The translations under genes and the position numbers were made by a program. From Rhodothermales bacterium (lineage in GTDB: Bacteria; Bacteroidota; Rhodothermia; Rhodothermales; VXPQ01), in assembly GCA_965116435.1 (NCBI GenBank), contig OZ220686.1:1594844-1658843 (forward strand): a stretch of DNA of 64,000 nucleotides, given 5' to 3'. Under the pieces are notes generated by a model that had not been told where the DNA came from, searched no databases, and saw only the letters and a list, made by a program, of their open reading frames with translations. Shown piece after piece: positions 2,418-60,790 of the stretch. The first letter of the stretch is position 1. Each line of letters begins with the position of its first letter.

Positions 2418-3524
2418 ATGGAATACCTGTTCAGCGACTATACGCTACGCATGGTGGCGCTGGGTTCCGCCGTACTGGGCATTGTGAGCGGCGGACTGGG
2501 GACGTACGCCGTACTGCGCGGGCAAAGCCTCCTCGGCGACGCCATTTCGCACGCCGCCCTGCCCGGCGTCGCGCTGGCTTTCCTGGTGACGGGAAGCAAG
2601 GCCCCGCTGGCGCTCATGATCGGCGCCGCGCTGGCGGGATGGCTGGCCACCCTCTGGATTCTGTCCATCACAGAAACCACCCGCATCAAGTACGACAGCA
2701 TGCTGGCCCTGGCGCTGTCCGTGTTCTTTGGCGTGGGGCTGGTCCTGCTCACGTGGATTCGGCAACACGCCGGGGCCGCCCAGGCCGGGCTGGATACGTT
2801 TTTGTTCGGACAGGCATCCTCCCTGGTCCGCCGCGACGTCGTCGCCATGGCCATTCCGGGCGGGGCCGCGCTCCTCCTTGCGGGGCTTTTCTGGAAAGAA
2901 CTGAAATTGCTGGCCTTCGACCCGGAATATGGACGCACGCTGGGCTTGCCCATGCGGCGCGTGGACCTCTTCCTGACCGCGCTGCTGGTCGTGGCCATCG
3001 TCATCGGACTGCAAACCGTCGGCGTCGTGCTGATGAGCGCCATGCTCGTGGCGCCCGCCGCCGCCGCCAGGCAATGGACGGATGTCCTGTGGAAAATGGT
3101 CCTGCTGTCCGCCGGGTTCGGCGCGGCGGGGGGCGTCTCCGGGGCCGTGCTCAGCAGCCTCGAAACCGGCCTCCCGACCGGGCCGCTGATCGTGCTCTGC
3201 ATGGGGGCGATCGTGGTGGCGTCCCTCTTCCTGGCGCCGAAGCGCGGCCTGCTGGGACAGCGCCTGCGAAGACGGCGGAATGCGGGACGTTTCCAGCGCG
3301 AACGCGTGCTGCTGGACCTCTACGCGCTGGGCATGCAGCACCACGACCCGCTGCGCCCCCACCCGCAGGGCGCGGTGCAAGCGATGCGGGCGCAAGACAT
3401 TCCCGTAGACCGCCTGCTTATGCGTCTGGAAAAGGAAGGCCTCGTCCGCCGCGCAGAGGATGGATGGGCTCTGAGCGAGGCGGGCCGGCGCCGCGCGGAA
3501 ACGCTGAAAACAGAACAACGATGA
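2418..3524 (+). CDS. Metal ABC transporter permease (ABC-3, TroC/MntC-like) with a C-terminal DtxR-like winged-helix extension
   Basis: Multi-TM ABC-3-like body (DAISHAALPGVALAF). After the last TM come an Arg-rich linker (RLRRRRN) and a roughly 80-aa soluble tail ...DRLLMRLEKEGLVRRAEDGWALSEAGRRRAETL. Confidence 0.88.
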   Translation: MEYLFSDYTLRMVALGSAVLGIVSGGLGTYAVLRGQSLLGDAISHAALPGVALAFLVTGSKAPLALMIGAALAGWLATLWILSITETTRIKYDSMLALALSVFFGVGLVLLTWIRQHAGAAQAGLDTFLFGQASSLVRRDVVAMAIPGGAALLLAGLFWKELKLLAFDPEYGRTLGLPMRRVDLFLTALLVVAIVIGLQTVGVVLMSAMLVAPAAAARQWTDVLWKMVLLSAGFGAAGGVSGAVLSSLETGLPTGPLIVLCMGAIVVASLFLAPKRGLLGQRLRRRRNAGRFQRERVLLDLYALGMQHHDPLRPHPQGAVQAMRAQDIPVDRLLMRLEKEGLVRRAEDGWALSEAGRRRAETLKTEQR

Positions 3525-4636
3525 CCCAGGGAGAGCTTGAAATCCAGCTGCTCGCCGTGGTCGTCGCGGCGGCGTGCGCGCTTCCGGGCGCGTTCCTCGT
3601 GCTGCGCAAAATGGCCATGATGAGCGACGCCATAAGCCACGCCATCTTGCCGGGCATCGTTGTGGCGTTTTTCTGGACCCACGACCTGAATTCCCCCCTG
3701 CTGATTCTGGCCGCGGCGGCTACAGGCGTACTCACCGCCATGCTGGTCGAACTGCTCATCTCCACGCAGCGCGTCCGGGAAGATGCGGCGATCGGGCTGG
3801 TGTTTCCCGTGTTATTCAGCGTGGGCGTACTCCTCATCGCTCGCTACGCCGGGGACGTGCACCTCGATACCGACGCAGTGCTCCTCGGCGAACCGGCCTT
3901 CGCCCCGTTCGACCGGCTCGTGGTGGCGGGACGGGATATCGGACCGCGCGCGCTGTACGCGACGGGCGCGGCGGGGCTGGCGAACGCCGTCTTCATCGCC
4001 CTGTTCTACAAGGAACTGAAGATCGCCACATTCGATGCGGGCCTCGCGGCGACGCTGGGGTTCGCCCCAGCGCTGATCCATTACGGACTCATGACCCTCG
4101 TTTCGCTCACCGCCGTGGCGGCGTTCGACGCCGTGGGGTCCATCCTCGTCGTGGCCCTGATGGTCGCGCCGTCCGCAGCGGCCTGCCTGCTCACCGACCG
4201 GCTCCGCACCATGATCCTGTGGAGCGTGGCGCTTGGCGTGGTTTCCGCGCTGGCGGGATTCCAGGCGGCCCGCCTCTTCGACGTATCCATCGCCGGCGCC
4301 ATGGCCGCGGCGGCGGGGGCGATCTTTGCGATGGTCTGGCTGGCGGCTCCCCGGTACGGCGTGCTCGCGGGCCGGCGGCGTCGCAGGCGGCAAAAATGGG
4401 AATTCGCCGAGAAAATGCTGGCCATTCACCTGTTCAACCACGAAGGGCTGCCCGAGGCGGATATAGAACACCGGGTCGGGCACCTCGAAGAACATCTCTC
4501 CTGGGAACGGGATTTTGCGCAGCGGGTCGTCCGCCGGGCGCAATCGAACGGGCTGGTACGGCGCGCCGGCGACGACATGCTGGCCTTGACCCCGAAGGGC
4601 CGCAAAGCCGCCTCCGAGGCCATCGAGAACCTGTAG
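3521..4636 (+). CDS. Second metal ABC transporter permease (TroD/MntD-like), also with a C-terminal DtxR-like winged-helix extension
   Basis: ATG at 3521 overlaps the upstream stop (ATGA). MTQGELEIQLLAVVV... DAISHAILPGIVVAF. Tail after RRRRRRQK: ...FAQRVVRRAQSNGLVRRAGDDMLALTPKGRKAASEAIENL. The longer track ORF from 2639 overlaps the previous gene in another frame. Confidence 0.85.
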   Translation: MTQGELEIQLLAVVVAAACALPGAFLVLRKMAMMSDAISHAILPGIVVAFFWTHDLNSPLLILAAAATGVLTAMLVELLISTQRVREDAAIGLVFPVLFSVGVLLIARYAGDVHLDTDAVLLGEPAFAPFDRLVVAGRDIGPRALYATGAAGLANAVFIALFYKELKIATFDAGLAATLGFAPALIHYGLMTLVSLTAVAAFDAVGSILVVALMVAPSAAACLLTDRLRTMILWSVALGVVSALAGFQAARLFDVSIAGAMAAAAGAIFAMVWLAAPRYGVLAGRRRRRRQKWEFAEKMLAIHLFNHEGLPEADIEHRVGHLEEHLSWERDFAQRVVRRAQSNGLVRRAGDDMLALTPKGRKAASEAIENL

Positions 4637-4826: not shown

Positions 4827-7331
4827 GGACACAGGATCGGAAGCAGCATCAGAGGCGGTCAGGCGTTTTTCCCGCCGCGCGCTGTAGCGGTGGTCCGCAT
4901 AGCGCCGCCAGACGGCCAGCCCGAACCCGCCGGTAAGCAGCAGGAATCCCAACCACAGGAAGTTGATGAACGGCTTTTCCCAGGCCTGCACCACAATCCA
5001 TTCATCGGGCGAAACAGCGACCCCTTCCAGAAAAAGGCGAATGGAGCCGTTATCCACGTTCATGCCCGTAAACGTGACCGTCAAGTCCCAGTCGTTCACG
5101 CGATTCTGAATGTATTGCTGCGTACGGTCCTGCATGATCAGATAGACCGGGCTCAGACGACGGGTTTCGCGGGTTTCCAGATTCGTCACGTCCAACAAGG
5201 CCGCCACGCCAATTTCCGTGGAATCGGGCAGGTCGGGGATGTTCGTCTGGTAATTGACGAACCGGATGGCGAACGCGTCGCCACCCACCACCGTGGAATC
5301 TCCCCGGGAGATGGTCAGTTCGCCCTGTTTGGCGGCAGGGTCTTCGGTTTCTTCGTCCGTCTCGTACATGGCGCTGGGCGACACCGCTACGAATATATCC
5401 TTGTCCAGGTACATTTCGTGGTCGGGATGCTGGATCCACTGCGCCTGCGTGCTTTTGTATACGACCGGGCGGACGGTGAAGGCGCGTCCGTTCGAATCGA
5501 CGAAATCCAGCACGTACACCGGACGGTTGCGGGCCGTGCGTTCGCGCCCGGACCAGGTCACGAGGTATCCCCCCACCGAGCGCGTCTGGCCTCGCTCCAG
5601 CACGAACGTATCCGAGCGATCCGTCAGCGGCGCGCCGCGCAATACGCCGATGGGCTTGCTGAACCCGCTGGACGCCACGATGGCCAGCGCCATAATGGCG
5701 AAGCCCACATGCGCCGTGGCGCCGCCCGCCATGCGCGGATTGCCGCGCCCGATCTTCCAGAGCACCATCCCGTTTCCGTAGAGCGCAAAGAACGCCATGA
5801 ACACAAGGAGCAGCAGCATAATGCCTGTCCCGTAGACCTCCCCGAAACCCCGGATCCCTTCGATCAACCCGAATCCCGCCTGCGCAGCCTCCGGGACGCC
5901 GCCCGCCGCCGATACGTCGGGCCGCTGAACGGTTGCCGCCGCAAACGGCGTAAAAATCAGCACCGCGACCGTACTGACCACCGCCCCGAGGATCGGTTTG
6001 AGCAGGACCCGGTTCGCCTGCTCGATATTCATCCGGTTCCACCAGAACAACTGCCCGAGGCCCGCAAGGAACACGATCAGGATGGAGAGCGGGAGCGACC
6101 ACTTGTTGTAGAACTCGATGGGCACCGTAGAAGGCGCCTCCCGAAACAGTTTCCCCAGAATAGGCGAACTGGTGCCTACGGTCACGACGGCGGCCAGGCA
6201 CGCCAGCAGCATGGCGCCGCAGAACGTCATGAACTCGCGCGAGAGCACGTTGGGTTCGCGGTCGGGCGCAGGCAGCTCCCGATACCGAACCGCAAAAAAG
6301 CCGAACCCGACCGCGCCCATGGCCAAGATCCAGACGAGCAGCTGGTTCATCATGCCCAGATCGACGAAGGAATGCACAGACACGTCGCCCAGTATCCCGC
6401 TCCGGGTCAGAAACGTCGAGTAAATGACCAGCATGTACGACAGGATGCAGAACAGGAAGGTGGATTTGTGGGCCCGCCCGCTTTTCTTCCGGATAATCAT
6501 GGCGTGGACCGCCGCGATGCCCGTAAGCCAGGGCACGAGGGAGGAATTTTCCACGGGATCCCACGCCCAGTAGCCGCCGAACGAAAGCGTTTCGTACGCC
6601 CAATAGCCGCCCATCGCAATGCCCACGCCCAGCACGGCGGTCGCGGCGAGCGCCCAGGGCAACGCCTGCGGAATCCACTCGACGTACCGGCGTTTCCACA
6701 GCGCCGCAATGGCGAATGCAAACGGAACCGCCATGAGCGTGAAGCCCATGAAAAGCGTCGGCGGATGAATGACCATCCAGTAATTCTGGAGCAAATCGTT
6801 CAGCCCCGACCCGTCCGCAGGCAGGAACCCCGGAATTTGCAGCATGGGCGCGTCCGGGAACTTGTCGGCGAGCGTGGCGAAGGGCGACGCGCCAACCCGC
6901 AGCGGCCCCAGCTGCAACCCCGCAATCATGGACGTCAGAAACCATTGCGACCCCGCCAGAATCGTCATCACAGGGGCTTCCCAGGCCCGCCGCAAGCGCA
7001 TCAGCGCCAGGCCGAGCGCGCTCATCAGGAGAATCCAGAGCAGAAACGACCCCTCCTGACCGGCCCAGAACGACGAAACCAGAAAGTGGGTCGGCAGCGC
7101 GCGGGAGGTTTGCTGATATACGTAGGCGTACTGGAACTGATGCGTGAGGAGCAGGACCATCAGGATCGCCGCCGCCGCCGCAAGGCTTGCGGTCATGCCA
7201 ATCCACGCAACACGGCCAATCCGCTTCCATTCGGCGTCGCCGGTGCGCGCCGCCCGAAGATATGCGTAGCCCGCAAGCGCGCAGCCCACAAAGCCGAACA
7301 GGACCAGAATGTGCCCGATGACGCCGGACAT
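4776..7331 (-). CDS. Cytochrome c biogenesis heme lyase, CcmF/NrfE family (extended, 851 aa)
   Basis: Trp-rich heme-handling motif GGYWAWDPVENSSLVPWL, many TM helices, CcmF-like N-terminus. C-terminal ASDP-type low-complexity tail. Confidence 0.8.
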   Translation of the reverse strand: MSGVIGHILVLFGFVGCALAGYAYLRAARTGDAEWKRIGRVAWIGMTASLAAAAAILMVLLLTHQFQYAYVYQQTSRALPTHFLVSSFWAGQEGSFLLWILLMSALGLALMRLRRAWEAPVMTILAGSQWFLTSMIAGLQLGPLRVGASPFATLADKFPDAPMLQIPGFLPADGSGLNDLLQNYWMVIHPPTLFMGFTLMAVPFAFAIAALWKRRYVEWIPQALPWALAATAVLGVGIAMGGYWAYETLSFGGYWAWDPVENSSLVPWLTGIAAVHAMIIRKKSGRAHKSTFLFCILSYMLVIYSTFLTRSGILGDVSVHSFVDLGMMNQLLVWILAMGAVGFGFFAVRYRELPAPDREPNVLSREFMTFCGAMLLACLAAVVTVGTSSPILGKLFREAPSTVPIEFYNKWSLPLSILIVFLAGLGQLFWWNRMNIEQANRVLLKPILGAVVSTVAVLIFTPFAAATVQRPDVSAAGGVPEAAQAGFGLIEGIRGFGEVYGTGIMLLLLVFMAFFALYGNGMVLWKIGRGNPRMAGGATAHVGFAIMALAIVASSGFSKPIGVLRGAPLTDRSDTFVLERGQTRSVGGYLVTWSGRERTARNRPVYVLDFVDSNGRAFTVRPVVYKSTQAQWIQHPDHEMYLDKDIFVAVSPSAMYETDEETEDPAAKQGELTISRGDSTVVGGDAFAIRFVNYQTNIPDLPDSTEIGVAALLDVTNLETRETRRLSPVYLIMQDRTQQYIQNRVNDWDLTVTFTGMNVDNGSIRLFLEGVAVSPDEWIVVQAWEKPFINFLWLGFLLLTGGFGLAVWRRYADHRYSARREKRLTASDAASDPVSGPASDPASDPSTDPTA

Positions 7332-7832: not shown

Positions 7833-10271
7833 TCACCATGCCAAACGAACCCGGAGATTAAACGTGCGCGGCGTCAGGCGGGTGGGAATGCGCTCCCATA
7901 TTCCGTCGCGGTTCGGCGTCCAGGCATAGGCTACCGTGTTCGTCATATTGAACGCATTGAGCAGCTCCGCGGTCAATTCCAGACGCAAACCCGCCCCGAC
8001 GTCCACGATCTTCGTAGCCCCCAGATCGACGCGCCGGTACGCAGGATACCGGGCCGAATTTCGTGCGCCGGGCGCCTGAATGACGAAGCGCCCGACTTGC
8101 CGGTCGGGCACCGGCGGCGTGTAGGGAAATCCGCTCCCGAACAGCCCGCGCACATGCACTTTCCAGGTGGAATCTCCCGGCACATAGTCCTGCACGAACA
8201 GCGACACCGTGTGCCGCTGATCCGACGGACGCGCAATGCTTCCGGTGCGATATTCCGTCCGGTATTCCGGCAAAAACGTCTCGACGGCGTGCAGATACCC
8301 GTAATTCAGGCGACTTTCGAGGCCGGGCACGAGTTCGCCGTACAGATGCACGTCCAGCCCAAGCGCCCGCCCCTCCGTATCGTTCCGGCCGGAATACAGC
8401 AGGCGAACGTTCCGCACGTCGTACGATATGAGCCGATCCATATCCCGGTAAAACGCGGCGGCGCGTACGTACAGCCGCCGGGCGGGCAAAAAATATTCGC
8501 CGCCCACAACATATTGCACGGCCCGCTGAGACCGGATATCGCGGTTCAGCGCATCGGGTATCGTTTCGCCCGGCGCAGGCGTACCCCGAAATTCGCGGTA
8601 GGTCGGCGTCTGGCGATAGTGGCCCCACGAACCGGTGGCCGTCAAGCGTTCGCTCACCGCGTACCGGGCCGAAATTCTCGGGGAAACGGTCCAGGCGCCG
8701 TTGAACGAAAAACGGTCCGCCCGCATCCCGGCGGTAAGGGTTAGCCCGCCTCGCTGCATGGTATTCTGCGCGTACGCGCCGGTTTGCCACGCCGAAAGCG
8801 AGGATTCGTCGGACAGGCGGTTCACCTCGATGCGGACGGCGTCCCCGTTCGTGTCCCTGCCAAACAGGTTGGCGTACTCGTCGATCCGGTCGGAAAAAGA
8901 CCAGGCCCGAACGCGCCAGCCCGCCTCCGCTGCGTGCCGCCCCGCCTGCCATCTGTACCGGCCCTGCCCGGTCCATGCAGCGCTTTCTATGGCGTTGTCG
9001 GCGAATTCCTCTTCGCGCACGTTCCCTATGGGCGCATGGCCCGCGCCGGTTTCAGGATCGCCGCCGGGATCGACGCGAAACACGACCGACGTCCCCTCGA
9101 TATCGAAGCGTTCCGTCTCGGACGTGCCGAACCAGGCTATATCGTGTTCTGCGTGGACCGACGGAGAAATCCGGTTCAGCAAACGGACGCCAGCGAACCG
9201 CGTCCGGTATCCGTCGTGTTCCGCGCCCTCGTACCGGGTCCAGAACGAACGCAAGTCCGACGGTACGTCGGGATGGAGGCTCAAGACGCCGAACCAGGTC
9301 TTGCGGCTCTCCGGGCTGAAGCGGAACACATGGTTGGCGTACATGCCCAGTACTTCGATTTCGTGTCCCGCCCGGAAGCGCCAGGTCGCCAGCCCCTGTA
9401 CGTCCGTGTAGTCGGGGCGATAATCCCCCTTCAGTTCCTGCGTACCAAAGAAATGCCGGGCGCGCGCCTTCCGAAACCCGGCGTTCCATCCAAACCGCCC
9501 GTCCGCCGCCGCCCCCCGGTACGCCACGCTGGCGTCCAGCAACGAGGCCGAGGCAGACCCGCCCATGGATTCGACATACGGACGGCGATAGCGCGTGTCC
9601 AACACAGAGGACAATTTGCCGCCGTACTTCGCCGGAAATCCCCCCGTGTACAGCACGATCCGATCGGCCAGGTCCGGGTTCAGCAAGCCGAGTCCTTCCT
9701 GCTCTCCTTGCCTCGGGCGCAACGGCATGTGCACCTCGAAACCGTTGATCAGGATAAGATTCTCGTGAAATCCGCCCCCATGCACCGAATACTGGTTGGA
9801 GAGTTCGTTGTTGGTCGCGACGCCCGGCAATACGCTCAACGCCTGGAACCCCTTGAACGGCGAAGGCACGTTGCGCACAGCCTCCGAGTCCAGTTCGTAC
9901 ACCCCGGGGTTCGTAAAAAACACATTCCCTTCCACCACAATATCCTGCATCTCGACCGTAGACGCCCGCAGGCGAACGTCCAGAACCACCCGTTCGCCGG
10001 AACGGATCTGCACGCGCCGCCATGTCGTCTCGTACCCCACCGCCGAGAACCGCAACACATGGGTCCCCGACGGGAGCCGAAGCACATAGGTCCCGTCCTC
10101 CTTGCTGGCGGTGCCGAAGTTGGTGTCGCGCACCAGAATGCTGACGTCGGGAACGGGCGTATCCTCCGCAGCCGTCAGGATGCGCCCGGACGCCGCCCCC
10201 CATTCCTGGGCCAGGGCGCCGAAAGGCCACAAGGCGGCGACGACAGCCAAAAAGGCGAATGCAGTGCGCAC
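7833..10271 (-). CDS. TonB-dependent outer-membrane receptor with N-terminal CarboxypepD_reg-like domain
   Basis: Signal peptide, then ...ILVRDTNFGTASKEDGTYVLRLPSGTHVLRFSAVGYE (carboxypeptidase-regulatory-like fold). Plug/barrel-like sequence with an aromatic C-terminal residue. Confidence 0.82.
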   Translation of the reverse strand: MRTAFAFLAVVAALWPFGALAQEWGAASGRILTAAEDTPVPDVSILVRDTNFGTASKEDGTYVLRLPSGTHVLRFSAVGYETTWRRVQIRSGERVVLDVRLRASTVEMQDIVVEGNVFFTNPGVYELDSEAVRNVPSPFKGFQALSVLPGVATNNELSNQYSVHGGGFHENLILINGFEVHMPLRPRQGEQEGLGLLNPDLADRIVLYTGGFPAKYGGKLSSVLDTRYRRPYVESMGGSASASLLDASVAYRGAAADGRFGWNAGFRKARARHFFGTQELKGDYRPDYTDVQGLATWRFRAGHEIEVLGMYANHVFRFSPESRKTWFGVLSLHPDVPSDLRSFWTRYEGAEHDGYRTRFAGVRLLNRISPSVHAEHDIAWFGTSETERFDIEGTSVVFRVDPGGDPETGAGHAPIGNVREEEFADNAIESAAWTGQGRYRWQAGRHAAEAGWRVRAWSFSDRIDEYANLFGRDTNGDAVRIEVNRLSDESSLSAWQTGAYAQNTMQRGGLTLTAGMRADRFSFNGAWTVSPRISARYAVSERLTATGSWGHYRQTPTYREFRGTPAPGETIPDALNRDIRSQRAVQYVVGGEYFLPARRLYVRAAAFYRDMDRLISYDVRNVRLLYSGRNDTEGRALGLDVHLYGELVPGLESRLNYGYLHAVETFLPEYRTEYRTGSIARPSDQRHTVSLFVQDYVPGDSTWKVHVRGLFGSGFPYTPPVPDRQVGRFVIQAPGARNSARYPAYRRVDLGATKIVDVGAGLRLELTAELLNAFNMTNTVAYAWTPNRDGIWERIPTRLTPRTFNLRVRLAW

Positions 10272-53234: not shown

Positions 53235-54404
53235 TTACTCCCCATCGAACAGGCTCTGCTGTCCACGCGCCAGACGCCGGAAATGCCGGGTGGAGAGGGC
53301 GCGACGTGGCGCATTCAGGCCCCACCGTTTGCGCTCCATGCGGAACAGACGGGCGATCAGGTCCGCCCAGTCCCCCTCGCCATGCATTCGCTTCCCGAAG
53401 CGATTATCCGTAAGATCGCCGCCCCGCAGCGAGGCCAGCCGCCGGATGATCTTGTTTGCTCGATCTGGAAATTCGCGCCGCGCCCAGTCGATAAAAATGT
53501 CCTGCACGGCGCCGGGCAGCCGAAGAATCGTGTAGCCGGCCCCCGACGCGCCCCGGCTCGCCGCCTCCTTCAGAATGGCCGGCATTTCCTCGTCCGTCAA
53601 GCCGGGTACGATGGGCGCCACGTTCACGGAAACCGGGATGCCCCGCGCCGCAAGCAGTTCGATCGCTTTGAACCGGCGGGCAGGGCGGGAGGTGCGCGGC
53701 TCCATGGTGGTCACGAGGTCGTCGCGCAAGGTCGTGATGGACAGCACGACATGGACCAGATTGTAGCGCGCCATCTGTTCCAGCAGGTCGATGTCCCGGG
53801 TCACCAGGTAATTCTTGGTGATGATTCCCACCGGGTTGCGGTGCCGTAGAAACACTTCGAGGCAGCCGCGGGTCAGGGCGAGGCGGCGTTCGAGCGGCTG
53901 GTACGGGTCCGTATTGCCGGACAAGGCCACGACTTGCGGCGTCCAGGATTTCTTCTGGAAGGTCTCCGCCAGCAATTCGGGCGCCCGTTCCTTCACAAGG
54001 ATGCGGGTTTCGAAATCAAGGCCCGCCGAAAAGCCGAGGTATTCGTGGGACGGGCGGGCGTAACAATACACGCACCCGTGCTCGCAACCCCGGTACGGAT
54101 TCAGGCTGTAGGCAAAGCCGATGTCCGGGCTGTCGTTGCGGGCCAGCAGGGTTTTCGTGGCGTCCACATAATAGGTTGTGGGCGTTTGGCGCAAGTCCTC
54201 TTCGTCCAGCGCGGCGGGGTCCTCTTCGATACGCAGGGGCTCGAAGCGATTTGGGGGGTTGATGCGGGCGCCCCGCCCCTGCCGAACGGGCAGTTCGATA
54301 AACGCCGGATAGCCCTCGGCGGGGCGGTCGGGAAGCGGGTTTGGGGGCGACTTCGGGGACAGGCTTGTGGACGAAGCGCGGCGCGGGCGTTTGGGGGTGG
54401 GCAT
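53235..54404 (-). CDS. Radical SAM protein, PA0069/Rv2578c-like family
   Basis: INPPNRFEP...YSLNPYRGCEHGCVYCYARPSHEYLG (CxxxCxxC cluster site). Start taken at MPTPKRPRR (54404). The upstream extension in the track ORF is low-complexity. Confidence 0.8.
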   Translation of the reverse strand: MPTPKRPRRASSTSLSPKSPPNPLPDRPAEGYPAFIELPVRQGRGARINPPNRFEPLRIEEDPAALDEEDLRQTPTTYYVDATKTLLARNDSPDIGFAYSLNPYRGCEHGCVYCYARPSHEYLGFSAGLDFETRILVKERAPELLAETFQKKSWTPQVVALSGNTDPYQPLERRLALTRGCLEVFLRHRNPVGIITKNYLVTRDIDLLEQMARYNLVHVVLSITTLRDDLVTTMEPRTSRPARRFKAIELLAARGIPVSVNVAPIVPGLTDEEMPAILKEAASRGASGAGYTILRLPGAVQDIFIDWARREFPDRANKIIRRLASLRGGDLTDNRFGKRMHGEGDWADLIARLFRMERKRWGLNAPRRALSTRHFRRLARGQQSLFDGE

Positions 54405-54994
54405 GGGGGGGTGGGAGGCAGCAAGCGAGGCGGGTGGTGGGATAGCGGCGGATGGCGTATGAATCGAGCAAAAGGGGTGTGGAGGCGGACGGCGGCGCGG
54501 ACAGAAACAGGGAATATATGTGCAATATATGTAATTTACAGATGGAAAGCAAGAAGAGAGTTCGTTTGGCGTGGACTCTGGATTCGTCAGGACATGGCGG
54601 CTATGCATCGGGAGCGTCAGCGATCCGGTGGCGATCAAGCCGCCCTTCGCAAAGAGTGCATTCGAAGGGAACATCCTGAATACTCACACTGTCCAGCAAG
54701 AAGAACCAGTTGCTTGGTAAAGCACGGCGCAAGCGACGCCGGTGCGCTTGGTTTCCAGCCTGTCAGGCATTACAATGCAGAGCGTGGATGATGATTCTTC
54801 CGACTCAACGAGAAGTGCAAACAAGCCCTGAAAAGAAAACGAGAGGAACAGGTCCACGGAGATCGACGGAAACGGTTCGCGCTCCCGGGAAGAATTTCCG
54901 CGCTAAAAAGAATGGAGTAAGCGCACCATCGAGCGCCCGCACATCCCGACCGACATCGCAAACCTTCCAAACCGTGCAGCGCCGCGGAGTGGGG

Positions 54995-56098
54995 ATGTTC
55001 CTCGGAGATGTGCTGGAGATGTACGACCAATGGCCCGCCCCGGTCGTCATCGTGTCCGATGGAGCATACGGAGTGTCCGGCTTTCCTGGCGATACTCCCA
55101 CGGCTGACGGACTGATCGATTGGTATCGTCCCCATGTACAGGCGTGGTCGAAATCTGCGACAGGCGAAACTACACTCTGGTTCTGGAACACCGAGATCGG
55201 GTGGGCAACGGTCCACCCGCTGCTCGTCGAATTTGGCTGGGAATATGTTGGCTGCAACGTCTGGGACAAGGGCATAGCACACGTATCGGGCAACACGAAT
55301 TCAAAGACGCTGCGGCGATTTCCGGTGACCACGGAGGTATGTATCCAGTACGTGCGACCACCCAGGTTTCTGATTTCCGGCCGCGAGGTCGAGATGAAAA
55401 AGTGGTTACGTTGGGAATGGATGCGGGCCGGCCTTCCGCTCAACCGGGCCAACGAGGCCTGCGATGTCCGAAACGCCGCAACTCGAAAATATCTCACGCA
55501 GGACCATTTGTGGTACTTTCCTCCGCCGGAAGCCTTTCAGCGTCTCGCGGACTATGCCAACGCGCACGGCCACTTGGAAGGGCGTCCCTATTTTTCCCTG
55601 GATGGCAAGACCCCGCTCACCGCGCGCGAGTGGGCGCACATGCGGTCCAAGTTTCACCTCGAACTCGGCGTCACAAACGTATGGAACGAAGGAGCCGTGC
55701 GTGGCAAGGAGAGGGTTCGCCACGCCAATGGGTCAGGAGGCTTCATCCATGCCAACCAAAAACCCGTACGTCTGATTCGTCGGATCATTGAAGCATCTTC
55801 CGGCCCGGGAGACATCGTGTGGGAACCTTTCGGCGGACTGTGCACAGCCGCTGTTGCCTCAGCCGATCTGGGCCGACGCTGTTTCGCCGCCGAACTGCTG
55901 CCAGAGTACTTTTCCGCCGCTACCCTTCGGCTCAGGAACGCCGAACAAAGACGGACGAAATTTCCGACAAGGCCGAGGAAGACGCAGGGCGGAACTTCGG
56001 GCGAATCGCCCGGACAGGGATCATGGACGACTTCACAAATCGGGCAGGAAACCGGCTCCTGTCCGGTATTGAAGCCCGCCATTGGCGGAGTTTCCTGA
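54995..56098 (+). CDS. Beta-class N4/N6 DNA methyltransferase (N6_N4_Mtase-like) with non-canonical motif IV (S-D-G-A-Y instead of [DS]PP[YF])
   Basis: MFLGDVLEMYDQWPAPVVIVSDGAYG (motif IV region first), later HANQKPVRLIRRII and IVWEPFGGLCTAAVAS (motif I-like FxGxG). This motif order marks the beta class. The C-terminal ~55 aa are low-complexity. Confidence 0.7.
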   Translation: MFLGDVLEMYDQWPAPVVIVSDGAYGVSGFPGDTPTADGLIDWYRPHVQAWSKSATGETTLWFWNTEIGWATVHPLLVEFGWEYVGCNVWDKGIAHVSGNTNSKTLRRFPVTTEVCIQYVRPPRFLISGREVEMKKWLRWEWMRAGLPLNRANEACDVRNAATRKYLTQDHLWYFPPPEAFQRLADYANAHGHLEGRPYFSLDGKTPLTAREWAHMRSKFHLELGVTNVWNEGAVRGKERVRHANGSGGFIHANQKPVRLIRRIIEASSGPGDIVWEPFGGLCTAAVASADLGRRCFAAELLPEYFSAATLRLRNAEQRRTKFPTRPRKTQGGTSGESPGQGSWTTSQIGQETGSCPVLKPAIGGVS

Positions 56099-56265
56099 AG
56101 ATATTCACCGAAACCGCAAACGAGGCGCACATTGAGGTAGCCTTGGCCCGATTGGAGGAACACGTAGAGAAGGCATCCATCCAGCAACAAGAGATGGAAA
56201 ACGTGCGCACAGTCGTTGACACGTTGGCGAACATGCTGTGGCCAAGACCAGACACGCCGCGATGA
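56023..56265 (+). CDS. Possible small ORF (80 aa) overlapping the methyltransferase 3' end in another frame
   Basis: MDDFTNRAGNRLLSGIEARHWRSFLKIFTETANEAHIEVALARLEEHV... has protein-like helical composition. No recognisable family. Confidence 0.25.
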   Translation: MDDFTNRAGNRLLSGIEARHWRSFLKIFTETANEAHIEVALARLEEHVEKASIQQQEMENVRTVVDTLANMLWPRPDTPR

Positions 56266-56333
56266 CGATCCGTACCGCTGTACGCCCACGCTATATCGCG
56301 CCCCAGCCCAGCCCCTAAGGGCAAATCTTTCTT

Positions 56334-56458
56334 TCCATTCACCAGCCTAAATAATTTAGGCGCGAAATTTTGAAGGTTAAATAATTAAGGCGACTCTGGT
56401 TGGCTCGGGGAATGGGGTTGGGGATGGAATGGTCTGGAGGCATTAGGCATTGCCCGGC
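56334..56458 (+). repeat. ~110-125-bp direct repeat, copy A, with AT-rich palindromes
   Basis: tccattcaccagcctaaataatttaggcgcgaaattttgaaggttaaataattaaggc...ggtctgg..attgcccggc aligns with 58637-58743. Contains the perfect 17-nt palindrome GCCTAAAT-A-ATTTAGGC (56345-56361). Confidence 0.8.
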
Positions 56459-56471
56459 GGTGGGCTTTAGG

Positions 56472-56585
56472 GGTGGTTCGGCTTCGTCGGGCAGCGTTTC
56501 CGGGTTTTAAGATGTAGAATTGCGATCTTGTCCCAATCCAACCAACCCAGAGAAAACTTCCCATGCCCACATTCAAAATCAAGAA
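56472..56585 (+). mobile_element. Solo copy of a nested IS junction: ~42 nt of an IS5-like 3' end plus an IS3-family left end. It extends through the transposase RBS/ATG and now forms the 5' region of the restriction gene
   Basis: About 90% identical over ~91 nt to the reverse complement of 60372-60462. Both copies run into an ATG at the same offset (56563 vs 60371). Confidence 0.75.
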
Positions 56586-57144
56586 CGCGGAACTCGCCGA
56601 GGCTGTGTCGCAGAAACAGCCTGATTTCCCCAAGTATACATCTCAGATTATCAACCTCGCCAACCAGAATGCTCAAGGTACGCGCCCCCGGGTTGTCGGC
56701 CAGATGACCGAGTTGTTTCAGGAGTTCGGGGGCAAAAGATATGAGGAATGGGATGCTTGGTACAGAAGCCAAAAACCCGAAGCCCTGGACGATGCAACAG
56801 ATCGAATCTATCCGATGGTGGAAAAATTGCGCACCGCTATACAGCAAATCGACAAAAGCATGGTGCGTGAGTGGGTTGAAGACCTTGTGCTCGTAAAGAC
56901 CTTTGTCGGCCTGTGCTTTCAGGAAGCAATCCTGGCAAGGGTTGCCCAACACAAGGAAACCAATTACCGGCTGGCAACGCCCTCAGAGGAATCGCAGGGA
57001 ATCGATGGCTTCATCGGCGAGACAGCGGTTTCCATCAAACCGTCAACATATGCGGTCAAGGACATGCTGCCCGAAGAGATACAGGGCGAAGTGATATTTT
57101 ATGAAAAGAAAAAGAGTGGACTTGCTGTGTCTTTCGATTTTTAG
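56563..57144 (+). CDS. Putative type II restriction endonuclease, PD-(D/E)xK-like (possibly MjaI-like family)
   Basis: Flanked by two methyltransferase genes, convergent with the second one with only a 4-nt gap. Candidate catalytic pattern E-x3-GIDGF-x3-E-x3-VSIKP. The MjaI-family idea is from memory only. Confidence 0.5.
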   Translation: MPTFKIKNAELAEAVSQKQPDFPKYTSQIINLANQNAQGTRPRVVGQMTELFQEFGGKRYEEWDAWYRSQKPEALDDATDRIYPMVEKLRTAIQQIDKSMVREWVEDLVLVKTFVGLCFQEAILARVAQHKETNYRLATPSEESQGIDGFIGETAVSIKPSTYAVKDMLPEEIQGEVIFYEKKKSGLAVSFDF

Positions 57145-57148
57145 CCAT

Positions 57149-58300
57149 CTACAGCGGTAACCGCACCTGCGCACTCTGCTTTACCGGCAGCGTACGCACC
57201 GCCCGAGGCGGGTCGAACCGAATGTCGGCGGGCGGCGTAGCGGACCGGACCTCGGCGGCGTACTGCGCCTGGACGGTCAGGCCGTCGGTTGCAGACACAA
57301 TGTCTACGTCCGATATGTCATCGAATAACAGGTCCTGCTCCTGCGCGGTCATGACTGGAAATCCGTAATGGCGATGCACGTATTTTGGCGGGCCGTGCTC
57401 TGCCGTGCGCAGGCGAACCCAGTCTTCGTGCTGCGCCAACCGACGCCGATTGTATTCGGCGGCGATACGCGGCGCGGACTCCAGAAAAGCCTGCCCGACA
57501 GGTATTAATGTGTCGTCGATCTCGACGCCAATGGAATTGCGCCTCGACGCCAGCGCCGCCGCCAATGTCGTTGCGGTCCCTGCAAACGGGTCCAGCACCA
57601 CATCTCCCTTGATGGAAAACATGCAAATGAGTCGATAGGCCAGCTCGAACGGGAATGCCCCGCTACGCTGCCGGGTCGCCTTGTCGGTCAGGCGTTGGGC
57701 GGTTCCCTTGACGTCGAACCATACATCGGAGAACCAGACGTTGCGCTCCTCCCAAAAGAAAGCGCTTGCCCGGCGGCGGGCTTTCTCGGCAGCCGTATCG
57801 AATCTTCTCCGCTTGCCTTTTCGCAGGACCAGGATGTATTCGTGTTCGTAGGTCACGTACGCCCCTACAGGCAACATCCCGGACCCCATGAACTTGTTGG
57901 GTGCGTTGGTCTGCTTGCGCCAGAGTATATCGGGCAATGCGGCGAATCCGCGCTCCAGGAAGCAACTCAGGATTCGGGAATGATTGGAATACAGTTGAAA
58001 ATCGCCGTTCAAGGTCCGGGTCGCATCGCCGATATTGATGCAGGCCAGGCCGCCCGGCTTCAAGACCCGACTGCATTCCCCCCAGACCGTGTCGAGCAAT
58101 TGGTGCATGAGGTCGAAGGCGGCGCGCCCCTCCTCTTGCGCCAGCCGGTCGCCGATACGCCCGTCCTGCGCAATGAATATATCGTCCCACATGGCCACCA
58201 TCGGATACGGCGGCGAGGTAACGATCAAGTCAACCGACGCATCCGTGACCTGCCCCATCGACCGCGCCGAACCGCATATCAGTCTGGAAGTTGTTTCCAT
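57149..58300 (-). CDS. Beta-class DNA methyltransferase with canonical SPPY motif (m4C- or m6A-forming)
   Basis: VDLIVTSPPYPMV (motif IV) precedes VVLDPFAGTATTLAAA (motif I). Start at METTSRLICG (58300). Confidence 0.85.
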   Translation of the reverse strand: METTSRLICGSARSMGQVTDASVDLIVTSPPYPMVAMWDDIFIAQDGRIGDRLAQEEGRAAFDLMHQLLDTVWGECSRVLKPGGLACINIGDATRTLNGDFQLYSNHSRILSCFLERGFAALPDILWRKQTNAPNKFMGSGMLPVGAYVTYEHEYILVLRKGKRRRFDTAAEKARRRASAFFWEERNVWFSDVWFDVKGTAQRLTDKATRQRSGAFPFELAYRLICMFSIKGDVVLDPFAGTATTLAAALASRRNSIGVEIDDTLIPVGQAFLESAPRIAAEYNRRRLAQHEDWVRLRTAEHGPPKYVHRHYGFPVMTAQEQDLLFDDISDVDIVSATDGLTVQAQYAAEVRSATPPADIRFDPPRAVRTLPVKQSAQVRLPL

Positions 58301-58636
58301 GCCATTCCTCTCTTGAAAGTACACCGAACACAGCCTGCCCGCACACCGCCCCACGGCAAGGAATGTACTGAATACAGCGGTTCATTGGCCCAGATATTTT
58401 CGCCGATCCTCCATGAAAATGCACCCTGTTGCCCAGGACGTGACTCGTTTGGCGCGGGCGCAGGGCATTTATTCGTGCGGTCGCAGGACCTTATTCGTAC
58501 GGGCCGCTGTTTTTCGGCCGACTTGCTTTCAGAGATTTGGTTGATTTATGGGACAGGGGGGCGTCTATCCCGTATTTTTGGTCATTTTAGCGTATAATTT
58601 CCCCACCAAAGGCCTTTTATAACGAGTTTTTTCACA

Positions 58637-58743
58637 TCCATTCACCACCTTAAATAACTTAGGTGCGAGAATTTGAAGGTTAAAAAATTAAGGCTGCGGC
58701 TGCTGGGCTTAGGGAAGAGGCGGTCTGGGGATATTGCCCGGCA
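58637..58743 (+). repeat. ~110-125-bp direct repeat, copy B
   Basis: tccattcaccaccttaaataacttaggtgcgagaatttgaaggttaaaaaattaaggc...ggtctgg..attgcccggc. Same orientation as copy A, about 2.3 kb away. Confidence 0.8.
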
Positions 58744-58767
58744 ACGAGATTATCCCAACCTGAAAAG

Positions 58768-59430
58768 TCATGGAGTAACCCAATGTTCCATCAGGAAGTC
58801 GGCGAACAGTTCGCACCCCTTTTTTCCTCCGTATGCTTTTGCGGTCCTGTTCCACCACGTAGTATTCGGATGCGGCGCATCCTCGTACGGAACACCGAAT
58901 TCGTCAACCACGCCCTGGCCGCCATTCCAAAAGGCAAGCTTGGATATAAAGAGGACAAGTTCGGGTGCATGCTCGCTGATAACCCAGCGAAGCACCTCCT
59001 CGGATATTACGCGATCCTGTTGCGTAACATAGTTTGTCATGCCGCCACCTGTCTTTGGCGCGGGAATCATAAAATAGTTGCAGAACGCAACGTGATCGAA
59101 AACGCATTGCCCTCCCAAAGTCAAGCCCTTTTTCTCGCTCACGTACGTTATTTGTTCGGCCATTTTACCCCATAGAAACCGAGGATCGCACTCTTCGCAA
59201 CCGTTCTCCCTTACACATTCCTGTGTGTTTATCCAACTACGTTCTTTGCACGTAAGGTCGTTCTCACTCTTATTGTACCATGCTTCACGGTCAAGTTGGA
59301 TAGTCGATTCCTTTGGCATATAGTGGCTTTCGCCGACTATCAGAAGCCGTTTGTGGCGATTGTCCGCATAGGCATCGCCTACCCACGGCATCAGGCAAGG
59401 GAAACGTTCAAGATGATTTGGCTTTTTCAT
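58768..59430 (-). CDS. Hypothetical protein, possibly uracil-DNA-glycosylase-superfamily fold
   Basis: KRLLIVGESHY (like UDG motif A G-[EQ]-x-P-[GY]) and, about 146 aa later, DAPHPNT (like motif B HP[SN]). Low GC. No firm family recognition. Confidence 0.35.
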   Translation of the reverse strand: MKKPNHLERFPCLMPWVGDAYADNRHKRLLIVGESHYMPKESTIQLDREAWYNKSENDLTCKERSWINTQECVRENGCEECDPRFLWGKMAEQITYVSEKKGLTLGGQCVFDHVAFCNYFMIPAPKTGGGMTNYVTQQDRVISEEVLRWVISEHAPELVLFISKLAFWNGGQGVVDEFGVPYEDAPHPNTTWWNRTAKAYGGKKGCELFADFLMEHWVTP

Positions 59431-59558
59431 GGGTTCAGGGGTTTGAAATTCAAGGGAAGGAAGAAATGATCTGGAAAATTCGGACAGGTCGTTTATCTGT
59501 AGGGTTGCGCTGGGTCATGCCGTCTCCGGCAGCCATCTTTGTGATATAAATTGCTTAT

Positions 59559-59849
59559 CTATTCATGAGGATTTATGGCATTACTTATACTATGTGTAAA
59601 TTTCGCAATCACAGTTAACAAGGTTCCAAGGCCAGCCATCCATAGTTCCAGCACAGTAGGATCGGGAATTGCAAGAAATATAGCTGCTGTCACGAAGGCG
59701 AGTATCGCGAATCCACCCGAGATATAAGTTAAAAGACCCAGAACACCTCTGAGCAAGCCCCATATAAATTCGCCTCTTGTGACGATTATTGCCGTGATAA
59801 GGACAGCGCCTATAACAACGTATAGCACCATGTCATTCGAAATTTCCAT
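59559..59849 (-). CDS. Small membrane protein (96 aa, ~3 TM helices)
   Basis: Three hydrophobic stretches (LYVVIGAVLITAIIV, GLLTYISGGFAILAFVTAAIFLAI, LWMAGLGTLLTVIA). Very low GC (~35-40%) compared with the flanks. Confidence 0.5.
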   Translation of the reverse strand: MEISNDMVLYVVIGAVLITAIIVTRGEFIWGLLRGVLGLLTYISGGFAILAFVTAAIFLAIPDPTVLELWMAGLGTLLTVIAKFTHSISNAINPHE

Positions 59850-59865
59850 AGCTGTTCAGAAAAGT

Positions 59866-60462
59866 ATAGGGTTAGGAACGGTCCGATAAATTCGGACAAT
59901 TATCGCGGGTCGTTTCACCGGGTCACAACAGTGGCTTACACCGCATTCATACGTAATATACGCCGCCCGACATCAATTGTCAAGACCCTGATGCAATTTT
60001 TTCGTTGCAGTAGCGGATATAGGCGTCGATGCGCACTCGCACCTCGGCGACCACTTCGTACGCATACCAGTGGATATCCCCCTATTTTCAGGCTACACCA
60101 GAAGCGTTCCACATACATGCTGTCCAGCCAGCGCCCCTTGCCGTTCAGGAGATGCGAACGCCATGCGCCTCCTCATCTCCATCGGATTGGCCGGTGCGAT
60201 TTTGCCTGAACAATCACTTCAGGTTATCGACGGCTCCCTTTTGACTTTACTGGTTCGGATGCACTTGAAGCGGGCCGCGAGGGCTGCCAGCGTGCTGTCG
60301 CCCCGTAAGGCAACGAGGGCTACCTTCGCCTTGAAGGTGGGACTGTGGGTTCTACGGGTGCGTTTGGACATGGAATGTCGCTCTAGGTTGGTTGGATTGA
60401 AACAAGATCGCAATCCTACACCTTAAAATCCCGGAAACGCTGTCCGACGAATCCGAACCACC
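59866..60462 (-). mobile_element. Internally deleted IS3-family element remnant (orfA N-terminus plus orfB C-terminus, both disrupted) with its left-end junction
   Basis: orfA fragment MSKRTRRTHSPTFKAKVALVALRGDSTLAALAARF then VHPNQ out of frame (60371 downwards). orfB tail ..GRWLDSMYVERFWCSLK.. and, in shifted frames, ..AYEVVAEVRVRIDAYIRYCNEKKLHQGL... Only ~600 bp versus the ~1.2-1.5 kb typical of IS3 elements. Confidence 0.75.
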
Positions 60463-60604
60463 TCTCAACGGCGGCAGTGTGGGATCGCGTGGAGGAGACA
60501 TAGACAAGTCGGATGCTCTCGACTGACGGGAACCCATCGGTGCGGCGGGTTTTGGCAACAGTAGGCATGGGGTCAGCGCCGAACAACTTCGCCGCAGGGA
60601 TCAA
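60463..60604 (-). mobile_element. Fragment of an IS5-family-like transposase C-terminus into which the IS3-like element is inserted
   Basis: ..IRLVYVSSTRSHTAAVERWFGFVGQRFR.. resembles the YxxRxxVERxFxxLKxxRR tail of IS5-family transposases. No intact ORF. Confidence 0.35.
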
Positions 60605-60662: not shown

Positions 60663-60673
60663 GGGGGGGGGGG
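60663..60673. repeat. Homopolymer G11 about 190 nt upstream of rmuC, inside the IS debris
   Basis: gaaactga-ggggggggggg-ctacatt. Confidence 0.9.
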
Positions 60674-60718
60674 CTACATTATCCAGCAAGGGGTTGTTTA
60701 TGGGAGCTGGCAATGCTC

Positions 60719-60790
60719 CATCGCAATCCTGCACTTGAACGACCTTTTCGAATTTATCGGACCGTTGTCGCTATACTACAGGCAAAAGCT
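60719..60790 (+). mobile_element. Additional solo IS-end fragments: an IRL-tip-like catcgcaatcctgca followed by an inverted copy of the IS right-end region
   Basis: cgaatttatcggaccgtt is the exact reverse complement of aacggtccgataaattcg at 59879-59896. The flanking gaacgacc and ctatact also match. A further short fragment sits at 59476-59512 (aaattcggacaggtcgttt...tgtagggttgcg). Confidence 0.6.

Follow-up and report, generated by a model that had tools for sequence, protein, structure and literature searches.

The window analysed in this work, a stretch of 64,000 nucleotides from contig OZ220686.1 of a Rhodothermales bacterium, contains a gene for a restriction endonuclease of the MjaI family, termed R, that starts directly behind a short block of sequence derived from an insertion sequence (IS). 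A second, inverted copy of this block closes a segment of about 4 kb that begins with the first. The arrangement is probably explained by a solitary left end of an IS3-family element that became fused to R, the 4-kb segment between the two block copies not being a unit. The features on which this reading is based are as follows.

56468 to 56562, + strand: solo IS3-family left end, consisting of the left inverted repeat (IRL; AGGGGTGGTTCGGCTTCGTCGGGCAG...) and the orfA leader, joined to the start codon of R (nhmmer E=1.5e-25)
56563 to 57144, + strand: R, MjaI-family Type II restriction endonuclease, 193 aa, intact (PF09568 at 2.3e-65, 164/164 profile positions)
57149 to 58258, - strand: M2, predicted partner N6/N4 DNA methyltransferase, here in the 369-aa form that corresponds to the gene call of the related contig L001, with the longest open reading frame (ORF) reaching 58354 (PF01555 at 1.8e-39; called as a gene in both L001 and L002)
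59874 to 60466, - strand: 593-bp relic of the same IS3-family element (left end, nhmmer E=1e-29; right end, E=1e-31)

The inverted repeat was confirmed and is beyond chance. It had been described in an earlier reading of the window, made without database searches and referred to below as the sequence-only reading, with an identity of about 90%; the repeat itself holds, and the figure has to be corrected to 86%, given that 56472-56562, aligned globally with 60372-60462 in reverse complement, shows 79 identical positions among 92 columns. The same alignment has two single-base gaps and no exact run of more than 14 nt. A repeat search of the window returned two overlapping inverted pairs, 56497-56561/60372-60436 and 56466-56508/60426-60468. 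Similarity reaches outward to 56466 and 60468, and inward it covers the ATG and 4 further nt (ATGCCCA in one arm, ATGTCCA in the other), in agreement with the earlier statement that the match runs into an ATG in both copies; the full span pairs 56466-56569 with 60364-60468 in reverse complement. Two cores, of 19 and 33 nt, are present exactly twice each in the window, compared with expected numbers of 0.02 and 0.00, and the nhmmer E-values of the two block copies were 1e-25 and 1e-30. The ATG at 56563 is the start of the 193-aa protein that matches PF09568 (RE_MjaI), and that at 60371 the start of a truncated IS3-type orfA, relatives of which carry PF01527. As the sequence-only reading had noted, the arms face each other and enclose R, M2, a 220-aa ORF, a 96-aa membrane protein ORF and the IS relic.

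The nature of the block became apparent from its copies elsewhere. Relatives of the orfA fragment and of an orfB fragment were searched and their contigs compared (L006, L007, L025, and L026), as were the contigs with close R homologues (L001-L005 and L008-L024), all close ones being metagenome-assembled genomes (MAGs) of Rhodothermales. Six copies of the block were compared, namely, the left and right arms of the window and those of L001, L006, L007, and L025. In all six the homology starts at the identical base, AGAGGTGGTTCGG, and the sequence 5' of that base is unrelated; the copies are found in five unrelated upstream flanks, those of the left arm and L001 being orthologous. Because the homology starts at the same base beside unrelated flanks, the block is the left end of the IS itself. 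Over 95 nt, the left arm agrees with the L001 copy at 91%, and its identity to the copies linked to orfA is 84-86%. A right inverted repeat (IRR) was identified in L006, where 5906-5930 (AGAGGTGGTTCGGTTTCGTCGGACA) pairs with 6593-6617 over 25 nt with 88% complementarity, and L025 was found to possess a 1086-bp copy (2484-3569), both ends of which were detected by the left-end and right-end models; a complete 97-aa orfA is present in L025. At the protein level, P0122, which is 88% identical to the orfA fragment of the window, matches PF01527 at 3.1e-6. The orfB fragment P0127 matches NF033516 ("IS3 family transposase") at 1.7e-32 as well as HTH_21 and rve_3, another orfB fragment, P0128, carries rve, and the orfB tail of the window aligns with positions 308-361 of the 369 positions of NF033516 (E=2.9e-8); being fragments, all these orfB sequences score below the whole-protein cut-off of that model. 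Taken together, these comparisons show the whole 98-nt block to be the left end of one IS3-family element, comprising the IRL and the untranslated leader up to the orfA start codon.

A junction between the IRL-leader and R was found in three places, the window, L001, and L009. The L001 flanks are 99% identical to those of the window. The L009 block has diverged (69-76% identity to the others), and its last 15 nt have been rewritten and now include GGAGG. Upstream of the ATG, the three sequences align with one another only across the block. Other relatives have other sequences at this position: in L002 and L008 (OZ246975.1), the 134 nt 5' of R correspond to the orfB tail and IRR of the same IS, and in L002 the IRR has its tip 1 nt before the ATG of R; in L010, a 568-aa CCA-adding-enzyme-like gene has its stop codon 2 nt before this ATG; and L004 and L024 have yet other sequences there. 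The argument on the junction makes use only of those that can be read directly, i.e., those of the window, L001, L009, L002, and L010. A start of homology exactly at the ATG, considered as proof of a precise breakpoint in L004 and L010, was dropped, since at a synonymous divergence (dS) of at least 0.5 neutral flanks would not align anyway.

The comparison of both parents indicates how precisely the junction can be placed. The orfA gene starts with ATGCCCAAACGC in L007 and L025, and R starts with ATGCCCAAATTC in L002, and the junction can be assigned only to somewhere within ATGCCCA(A/C)A, i.e., to the start codon and first two codons. As shown by these alignments, the left arm (56468-56562) is a solo relic joined to an ancestral intact R at the start codon or first two codons. 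The proposal that R starts inside a captured IS3 left end is thus correct as far as the IS sequence up to the ATG is concerned, which is shared with L001 and L009; its second part, the capture of the start codon, does not hold because the junction lies within a sequence that is common to both parents. An origin for this junction can be proposed. An IS copy would once have been located directly upstream of R and in the same orientation, a state of which L002 would represent a relic. The body of this IS would have been flanked by 9-nt direct repeats, ATGCCCAAA, one at the orfA start and the other at the R start, and a deletion between these repeats would have removed the IS body, leaving IRL-leader-ATGCCCAAATTC. 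We infer that the junction is likely to have arisen by such a deletion across the shared ATGCCCAAA.

The coding sequence of R itself is that of an ordinary member of its family. Of 3919 homologues, most of the best 120 have a length of exactly 193 aa with 100% query cover, and an N-terminal consensus of MPKxKIKNxEL was found across 22 diverse homologues. The ratio of nonsynonymous to synonymous substitutions (dN/dS) for R is 0.09-0.13 in comparisons of the window with L002, L009, L010, and L004; between the window and L009, which are two IS-fused lineages, it is 0.09 at a dS of 0.55. Judging by these ratios, R stays under purifying selection, the IS-fused lineages included, and the family comparison indicates that it is ancestral and intact, with a coding sequence that is not chimeric. 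The first codons of R had been thought to derive from orfA in view of the likeness of PTFKIK to the SPTFKAK segment of the latter; this likeness is coincidental because the N-terminus MPKxKIKN is conserved across the family. M2 is convergent with R at a distance of 4 nt, and family matches and adjacency predict that both form an MjaI-family Type II restriction-modification (RM) system, for which CTAG would be the expected site of recognition and cleavage. Compared to other MjaI-family systems, i.e., PF09568 proteins with an N6/N4 methyltransferase, the proteins are ordinary and of the family-typical 193 aa for R, and only the upstream context differs. Exact look-ups of the R protein of the window and of the 220-aa protein showed that neither is on record. 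A separate observation concerns the R gene of L009 (4001-4582), in which a single nonsense codon replaces the invariant Gln47 (Q47*, CAG to TAG) and M2 is still open; this looks like a recent inactivation of restriction.

The right arm has a different history. The 593-bp relic consists of an IRL and leader (60466-60372), a truncated orfA (60371-60219, protein P0123), an internal deletion, an orfB tail (~60140-59940), and an IRR (59900-59874), and it contains no intact ORF. The alignments show the right arm (60369-60466) to be the left end of this independent, internally deleted relic. Several lines of evidence indicate that it is not the partner of the left arm. The sequence-only reading had suggested that a target duplication be sought outside 56472 and 60462 and that relatives be compared, and both checks had a negative outcome. 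On the + strand, the segment is preceded by ...GGGCTTT and followed by CAACGG..., i.e., TTT is opposed to CAA, so that a target duplication is absent. Identity between the two arms is 84%, compared with the 91% of the left arm to its L001 orthologue given above, and the right arm reaches 93% with the copies linked to orfA; by these values, the arms did not arise by a recent duplication. Of the window, L001 shares only 56469-58710, colinearity stopping at 58710, L009 only 56473-58422 and the direct repeat D1 described below, and L002 only R-M2; these relatives thus have parts around R-M2 in common with the window, not the whole 4-kb unit, and the 220-aa and 96-aa ORFs are absent from all three. 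On this comparative evidence, the bracketed segment is a chance juxtaposition in an IS-littered defence island, with neither a composite transposon nor a nested IS3-in-IS5 junction.

The sequence-only reading had arrived at the opposite view, namely, that an IS3 left end sits within the 3' end of an IS5-like transposase gene and that the inverted copies are the arms of a decayed composite transposon carrying R and M2 together with the 220-aa and membrane genes. The inverted arrangement does exist, the outer termini of both arms point outward, and a frame across the outer 42 nt reads ERWFGFVGQRFR, which superficially resembles the C-termini of DDE transposases. Nesting would place the IS3 left terminus at TGTAGGATTGCG and assign the outer 42 nt to another element, which is contradicted by the data: these 42 nt are present in all six left ends compared, whatever the flank, they pair with the right inverted repeat, and the 62-aa ORF concerned gave no match to any transposase family (Pfam at E<=10, NCBIfam at E<=1). 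Since the 42 nt are part of every IS left end and the ORF matches no transposase, the peptide WFGFVGQRFR, read earlier as an IS5-like transposase tail, represents a spurious frame through the IRL; a similar pseudo-peptide, EKWFGLVGQ, results from reading through the IRR of L006. A composite transposon at 56468-60466 would moreover consist of a 95-nt solo end and a 593-bp relic, without a source of transposase, in addition to lacking a target duplication and to never being shared as a whole by relatives. Very little credence can be given to this nested or composite model. The same inverted repeats might be regarded as a recombination switch that inverts the 3.8-kb segment between the 98-nt copies, as inverted repeats can mediate inversion and as the orientation of RmuC differs between the window and L002, so that inversions have happened in the region. 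With 86% identity and no exact run of more than 14 nt, the copies fall short of the length that RecA-mediated exchange usually requires, which makes a present-day homologous inversion unlikely; an inversion within the block would leave each ORF with an equivalent leader, so that nothing would be switched, and L001 keeps the same orientation of R without having a second arm. A switch of this kind appears far-fetched.

The fusion of a solo IS3 left end to R, the reading retained here, is accompanied in two relatives by IS sequences on the other side of R-M2. Behind R-M2, L001 has an orfB tail with a near-consensus IRR that ends at 8903, 8 nt before a GmrSD gene, and the resulting shell, from the IRL at 6475 to the IRR at 8903, measures 2.43 kb. 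The corresponding unit of L009 has a total length of 2.24 kb and extends from the IRL at 3907 to the end AATCCGAACCGTCTCT (6131-6146), which, compared with the IRL tip in reverse complement, is identical at 14 of 16 positions, for an estimated ~0.004 chance matches in 8.6 kb. R-M2 is found at two loci, a radical-SAM/TonB locus in the window, L001, and L002, and a locus in L009 that has IlvD, esterase, and MBL-fold genes at one end of the unit and XRE and TaqI-like genes at the opposite end. In L001 and L009, R-M2 between IS left and right ends looks like a transposase-less IS-derived cassette, which may once have been moved in trans. By the same comparison, the unit of the window has lost its right end.

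Several points weigh against the reading proposed here, and two further explanations, one concerning the movement of the unit and the other its expression, have to be considered together with them. The gene order of L002 (R-M2, then M1-R1) differs from that of the window (M1-R1', then R-M2), so that L002 is no simple precursor, and the microhomology deletion is a reconstruction, no such event having been observed. IS3-family elements typically have the termini 5'-TG...CA-3'. Those of the present element are AGAGG...TTCT, i.e., AGAGGTGG...CATTTCT in all copies. Searches with the orfA and orfB fragments in a database of 5.8 billion proteins returned only truncated proteins of 32-144 aa; they yielded neither a complete IS nor a copy that retains an undamaged orfA-orfB overlap, where a programmed -1 frameshift would be expected in this family. 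The IRL DNA, scanned against GTDB genomes and against JGI metagenomes, gave no match. No short target duplication, expected to be of 3-5 bp, was seen at the copies in L006 (CTC/CCA) and L025 (GTC/TAG) or at the window relic (TTG/AAC), which are old and possibly rearranged relics. As to movement, the left end might be the working terminus of a non-autonomous IS3-derived transposon (IRL-leader-R-M2-IRR) that is moved between loci by an IS transposase supplied in trans, in which case the fusion to R would make the RM system mobile. The near-consensus IRL and IRR around R-M2 in L001, the IRL and 16-nt terminal inverted repeat around R-M2 at a different chromosomal locus in L009, and the coincidence of the homology boundaries between the window and L001 and between the window and L009 with the IRL tip all agree with this idea, and RM units with imperfect inverted repeats that were possibly moved in trans have been described (PMC2853133). 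Opposed to it are the lack of an IS right end after M2 in the window and the absence of a target duplication in L009 (AGA versus GTG). The AAG/AAG around the L001 unit, considered as a target duplication, is probably coincidental, given that its right flank does not continue native sequence and that the left junction of L001 is a deletion of window positions 54567-56471 relative to the native sequence common to the window and L002. Neither an empty site nor an intact IS that could supply transposase was found, and other recombination could equally explain the transfer between loci. A trans-mobile unit appears possible but rather unlikely. A decayed IRL at 54571-54663, which would make L001 a recombinant, was also discarded, its local-alignment score of 31 comparing with a null of 19.9 +/- 3.9 (maximum, 38); this stretch is native sequence shared with L002 around 9815-9835.

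The second explanation concerns what the IS leader contributes to R. In IS2, a weak transposase promoter, P_IRL, lies just within the left end, and OrfA binds adjacent to it (PMC3299598). By analogy, R would owe its transcription and translation to the weak promoter and the leader that serve the transposase at the left end, and an IS-derived promoter and ribosome-binding site for R are plausible. Alternatively, the leader might be a neutral scar with no role in expression, R being read through from M1 in the window or transcribed from other upstream promoters in relatives, or being barely expressed. A simple scan of 56200-56650 detected no sigma-70 consensus promoter, either in the block or elsewhere in that interval, and no predicted terminator, and R of the window is co-directional with M1, read-through from which could express it. 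Between the window or L001 and L009, the block is 69-73% identical, for a neutral expectation of ~61% at a dS of 0.55, indicating a constraint on the leader that is weak and only slightly above neutral; the rewritten end of the L009 leader, with its GGAGG, likewise speaks for a scar. There are arguments in the other direction as well. In L001, the block and ~80 nt are all the sequence between R and the divergently transcribed radical-SAM gene, and because of this short distance the R promoter is expected in or beside the block. Furthermore, R is under purifying selection in the IS-fused lineages, and the transposase promoter is known to reside in the left ends of IS3-family elements (PMC3299598). 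The neutral scar has a real chance of being correct, without being the outcome we would expect. A native promoter TTGACA-17-TATTCT considered 5' of R in L002 turned out to be the conserved orfB tail (LDNLTPDDVYY) of the IS right-end relic.

Links between the fusion of the IS left end to R and several known systems can be established. The ends of IS3-family elements such as IS2 and IS911 are known to contain promoters, P_IRL inside the left end and an outward -35 element in the right end (PMC3299598, PMC9330008). As in these cases, an IS3-family end fragment is located directly 5' of a host gene, for which it is the only candidate promoter and leader, and right-end relics are here also found just upstream of co-oriented genes. 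The present case differs in that the left end has been retained with the whole orfA leader and orfA gives way to the host ORF exactly at the start codon, whereas the classical cases are outward or hybrid promoters from intact IS; the promoter role is here only putative. Mobile insertion cassettes, or "transporter IS", possess IS-type ends and passenger genes but no transposase, an example being the IS231-MIC231 of Bacillus cereus. The likeness to such cassettes consists in the IS ends around passengers, the missing transposase, and the presence of relics of the parent IS nearby; the differences are that an intact parent IS was not found, that the passenger is fused to the transposase start codon instead of having its own expression signals, and that mobilization is putative. 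A further known system is that of transposon-like RM units with imperfect inverted repeats, described by Furuta, Abe, and Kobayashi in 2010 (PMC2853133), and IS-linked movement of RM systems has also been reported (PMC3031569, PMC2875022). In L001 and L009, the resemblance extends to a Type II R-M pair between imperfect terminal inverted repeats, without transposase and at different loci. The published units have repeats of unknown origin, some of them with 8-bp target duplications and an empty site (PMC2853133), whereas the repeats reported here can be assigned to a specific IS3-family element, target duplication and empty site were not found, and the window keeps one end.

The significance of the case lies in the nature of the gene. 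A restriction endonuclease is a toxic gene, and R lost its own upstream region and survived on a transposase leader over ~0.5 synonymous substitutions per site, which provides a clean, comparatively dated case of IS debris rewiring a defence island, real but fairly ordinary. A specific IS family is now assigned to the inverted repeats flanking a transposon-like R-M unit; earlier surveys had left the origin of such repeats open (PMC2853133). If the leader acts as promoter, a transposase promoter, and possibly repressors derived from the transposase, would determine the level of restriction, and if the shell is mobilizable, RM systems would spread without carrying a mobility gene. A more far-reaching proposal, which we consider improbable, is that the ends of one now-extinct IS3-family element have been domesticated in this Rhodothermales lineage as portable expression modules and cassette boundaries: the left end and leader would drive R, with OrfA or OrfAB able to repress via the IRL, right-end relics would provide outward promoters to GmrSD, RmuC, M1, and the small cargo genes, and the IRL...IRR shell would let R-M hop in trans. 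In that case, restriction activity would be coupled to the presence of the IS. The result is a well-supported anatomical description and no new mechanism. Both kinds of arrangement, IS-end relics 5' of genes and RM units in IS-type inverted repeats, are already known.

Further features of the region are listed below.

54710 to 56265, + strand: M1, methyltransferase ORF joined to the last 318 nt of its partner gene R1 (PF01555; blastn versus L002)
56334 to 56455, + strand: direct repeat D1, upstream copy, resembling the sequence beyond M2 in the window, L001, L002, and L009 (58 nt at 88%; blastn to L009 6031-6085)
58637 to 58745, + strand: direct repeat D1', downstream copy, upstream of the M2 start (repeat search, extended alignment)
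58768 to 59849, - strand: low-GC cargo, consisting of the 220-aa ORF (58768-59430) and the 96-aa membrane protein (59559-59849), each with a right-end relic of the IS in front of it
59462 to 59535, - strand: IRR relic with its tip 31 nt upstream of the 220-aa ORF and pointing into it (nhmmer E=1.3e-10; a copy outside the model-building set)
60699 to 60767, + strand: IRR relic ending ~90 nt upstream of RmuC and pointing into it (nhmmer E=6.8e-13 and alignment)

The stretch that extends from the radical-SAM gene as far as RmuC constitutes a rearranging defence island with two Type II RM systems, GmrSD, and small cargo genes. A comparison by blastn showed that 54709-55948 corresponds to L002 12497-13733 and 55948-56265 to L002 14360-14677, a 626-bp deletion (L002 13734-14359) having taken most of R1 in the window. 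In L002, R1 encodes 307 aa and has a weak PADLOC match to REase_II (2.5e-4). Because this deletion removed most of its partner, M1 of the window is an orphan methylase. Relative to L002, the window has its two RM modules in exchanged order. The final 9 nt of R1, CCGCGATGA (56257-56265), recur reversed as CCGCGATAA (59909-59917) beside the IRR of the IS relic; L002 has a short IRR relic directly after R1, and RmuC is inverted in the window relative to L002. These observations point to past IS-associated inversions. A 9-bp inverted duplication of CCGCGATGA as the product of a transposition-mediated inversion was not adopted, given that IS ends do not adjoin both copies and that "CCGCG" belongs to the IS right-end region.

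Five relics of the one IS were identified in the window (56468-56562, 59462-59535, 59874-60006, 60369-60466, and 60699-60767). A third, diverged left end initially suspected at 60720-60770 was recognized, by alignment with right ends, as an IRR relic on the + strand. Right-end relics, consisting of an orfB tail and IRR, are located in the window at 59462-59535(-), 59874-60006(-), and 60699-60767(+), and in relatives at L001 8757-8903, L002 9866-9999 and 12362-12489, L025 3436-3569, and L006 6462-6617 and 5743-5861(-). Nine of 10 right-end relics are situated directly upstream of co-oriented genes and point into these, the exception being L002 14653-14703. The distance between IRR tip and start codon is 24 nt for the membrane ORF, 31 nt for the 220-aa ORF, ~90 nt for RmuC, 8 nt for GmrSD, 1 nt for R in L002, 48 nt for an AAA ATPase, and below 250 nt for the others. 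This placement may reflect retained outward promoter elements or an insertion preference. In L025, relics of the IS adjoin an HsdM/Eco57I-like gene with DUF5677 as well as a pair of AAA ATPase and S8 peptidase genes, and in L026 a relic adjoins a HinfI-like R-M pair with an IS1595 transposase; in these MAGs, the IS seems to be restricted to defence islands, and all copies seen were decayed.

The 220-aa ORF has a GC content of 50% and the membrane ORF one of 43%, R is also in the 43-50% range, and the window has 60%. Neither of the two cargo ORFs gave a family match in Pfam, NCBIfam, PADLOC, or PDB sequences, and the label "UDG-like", given to 58768-59430 in the sequence-only reading, is without sequence support in these collections. 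The D1 and D1' repeats, of ~110-120 nt and with AT-rich palindromes, flank the IRL-R-M2 unit in the window, and L001, L002, and L009 have only the D1 copy beyond M2. The pair may represent either the tail of an earlier tandem copy or a long target duplication like those reported for RM insertions (PMC2853133). Variable-length G-rich tandem repeats, e.g., GGCGGCGGAACGCAGAGTTCGGGGTGGGTAAAACGTGGGGGAAGACAG, are located between the radical-SAM gene and the RM region (L002 9440-9760; window ~54380-54480), and the longest radical-SAM ORF crosses them, with 479 aa compared to gene calls of 385-389 aa in relatives. A run of ten G residues is present at 60664-60673, in the ~230 unassigned nt between the IRL of the IS relic and the IRR relic upstream of RmuC.

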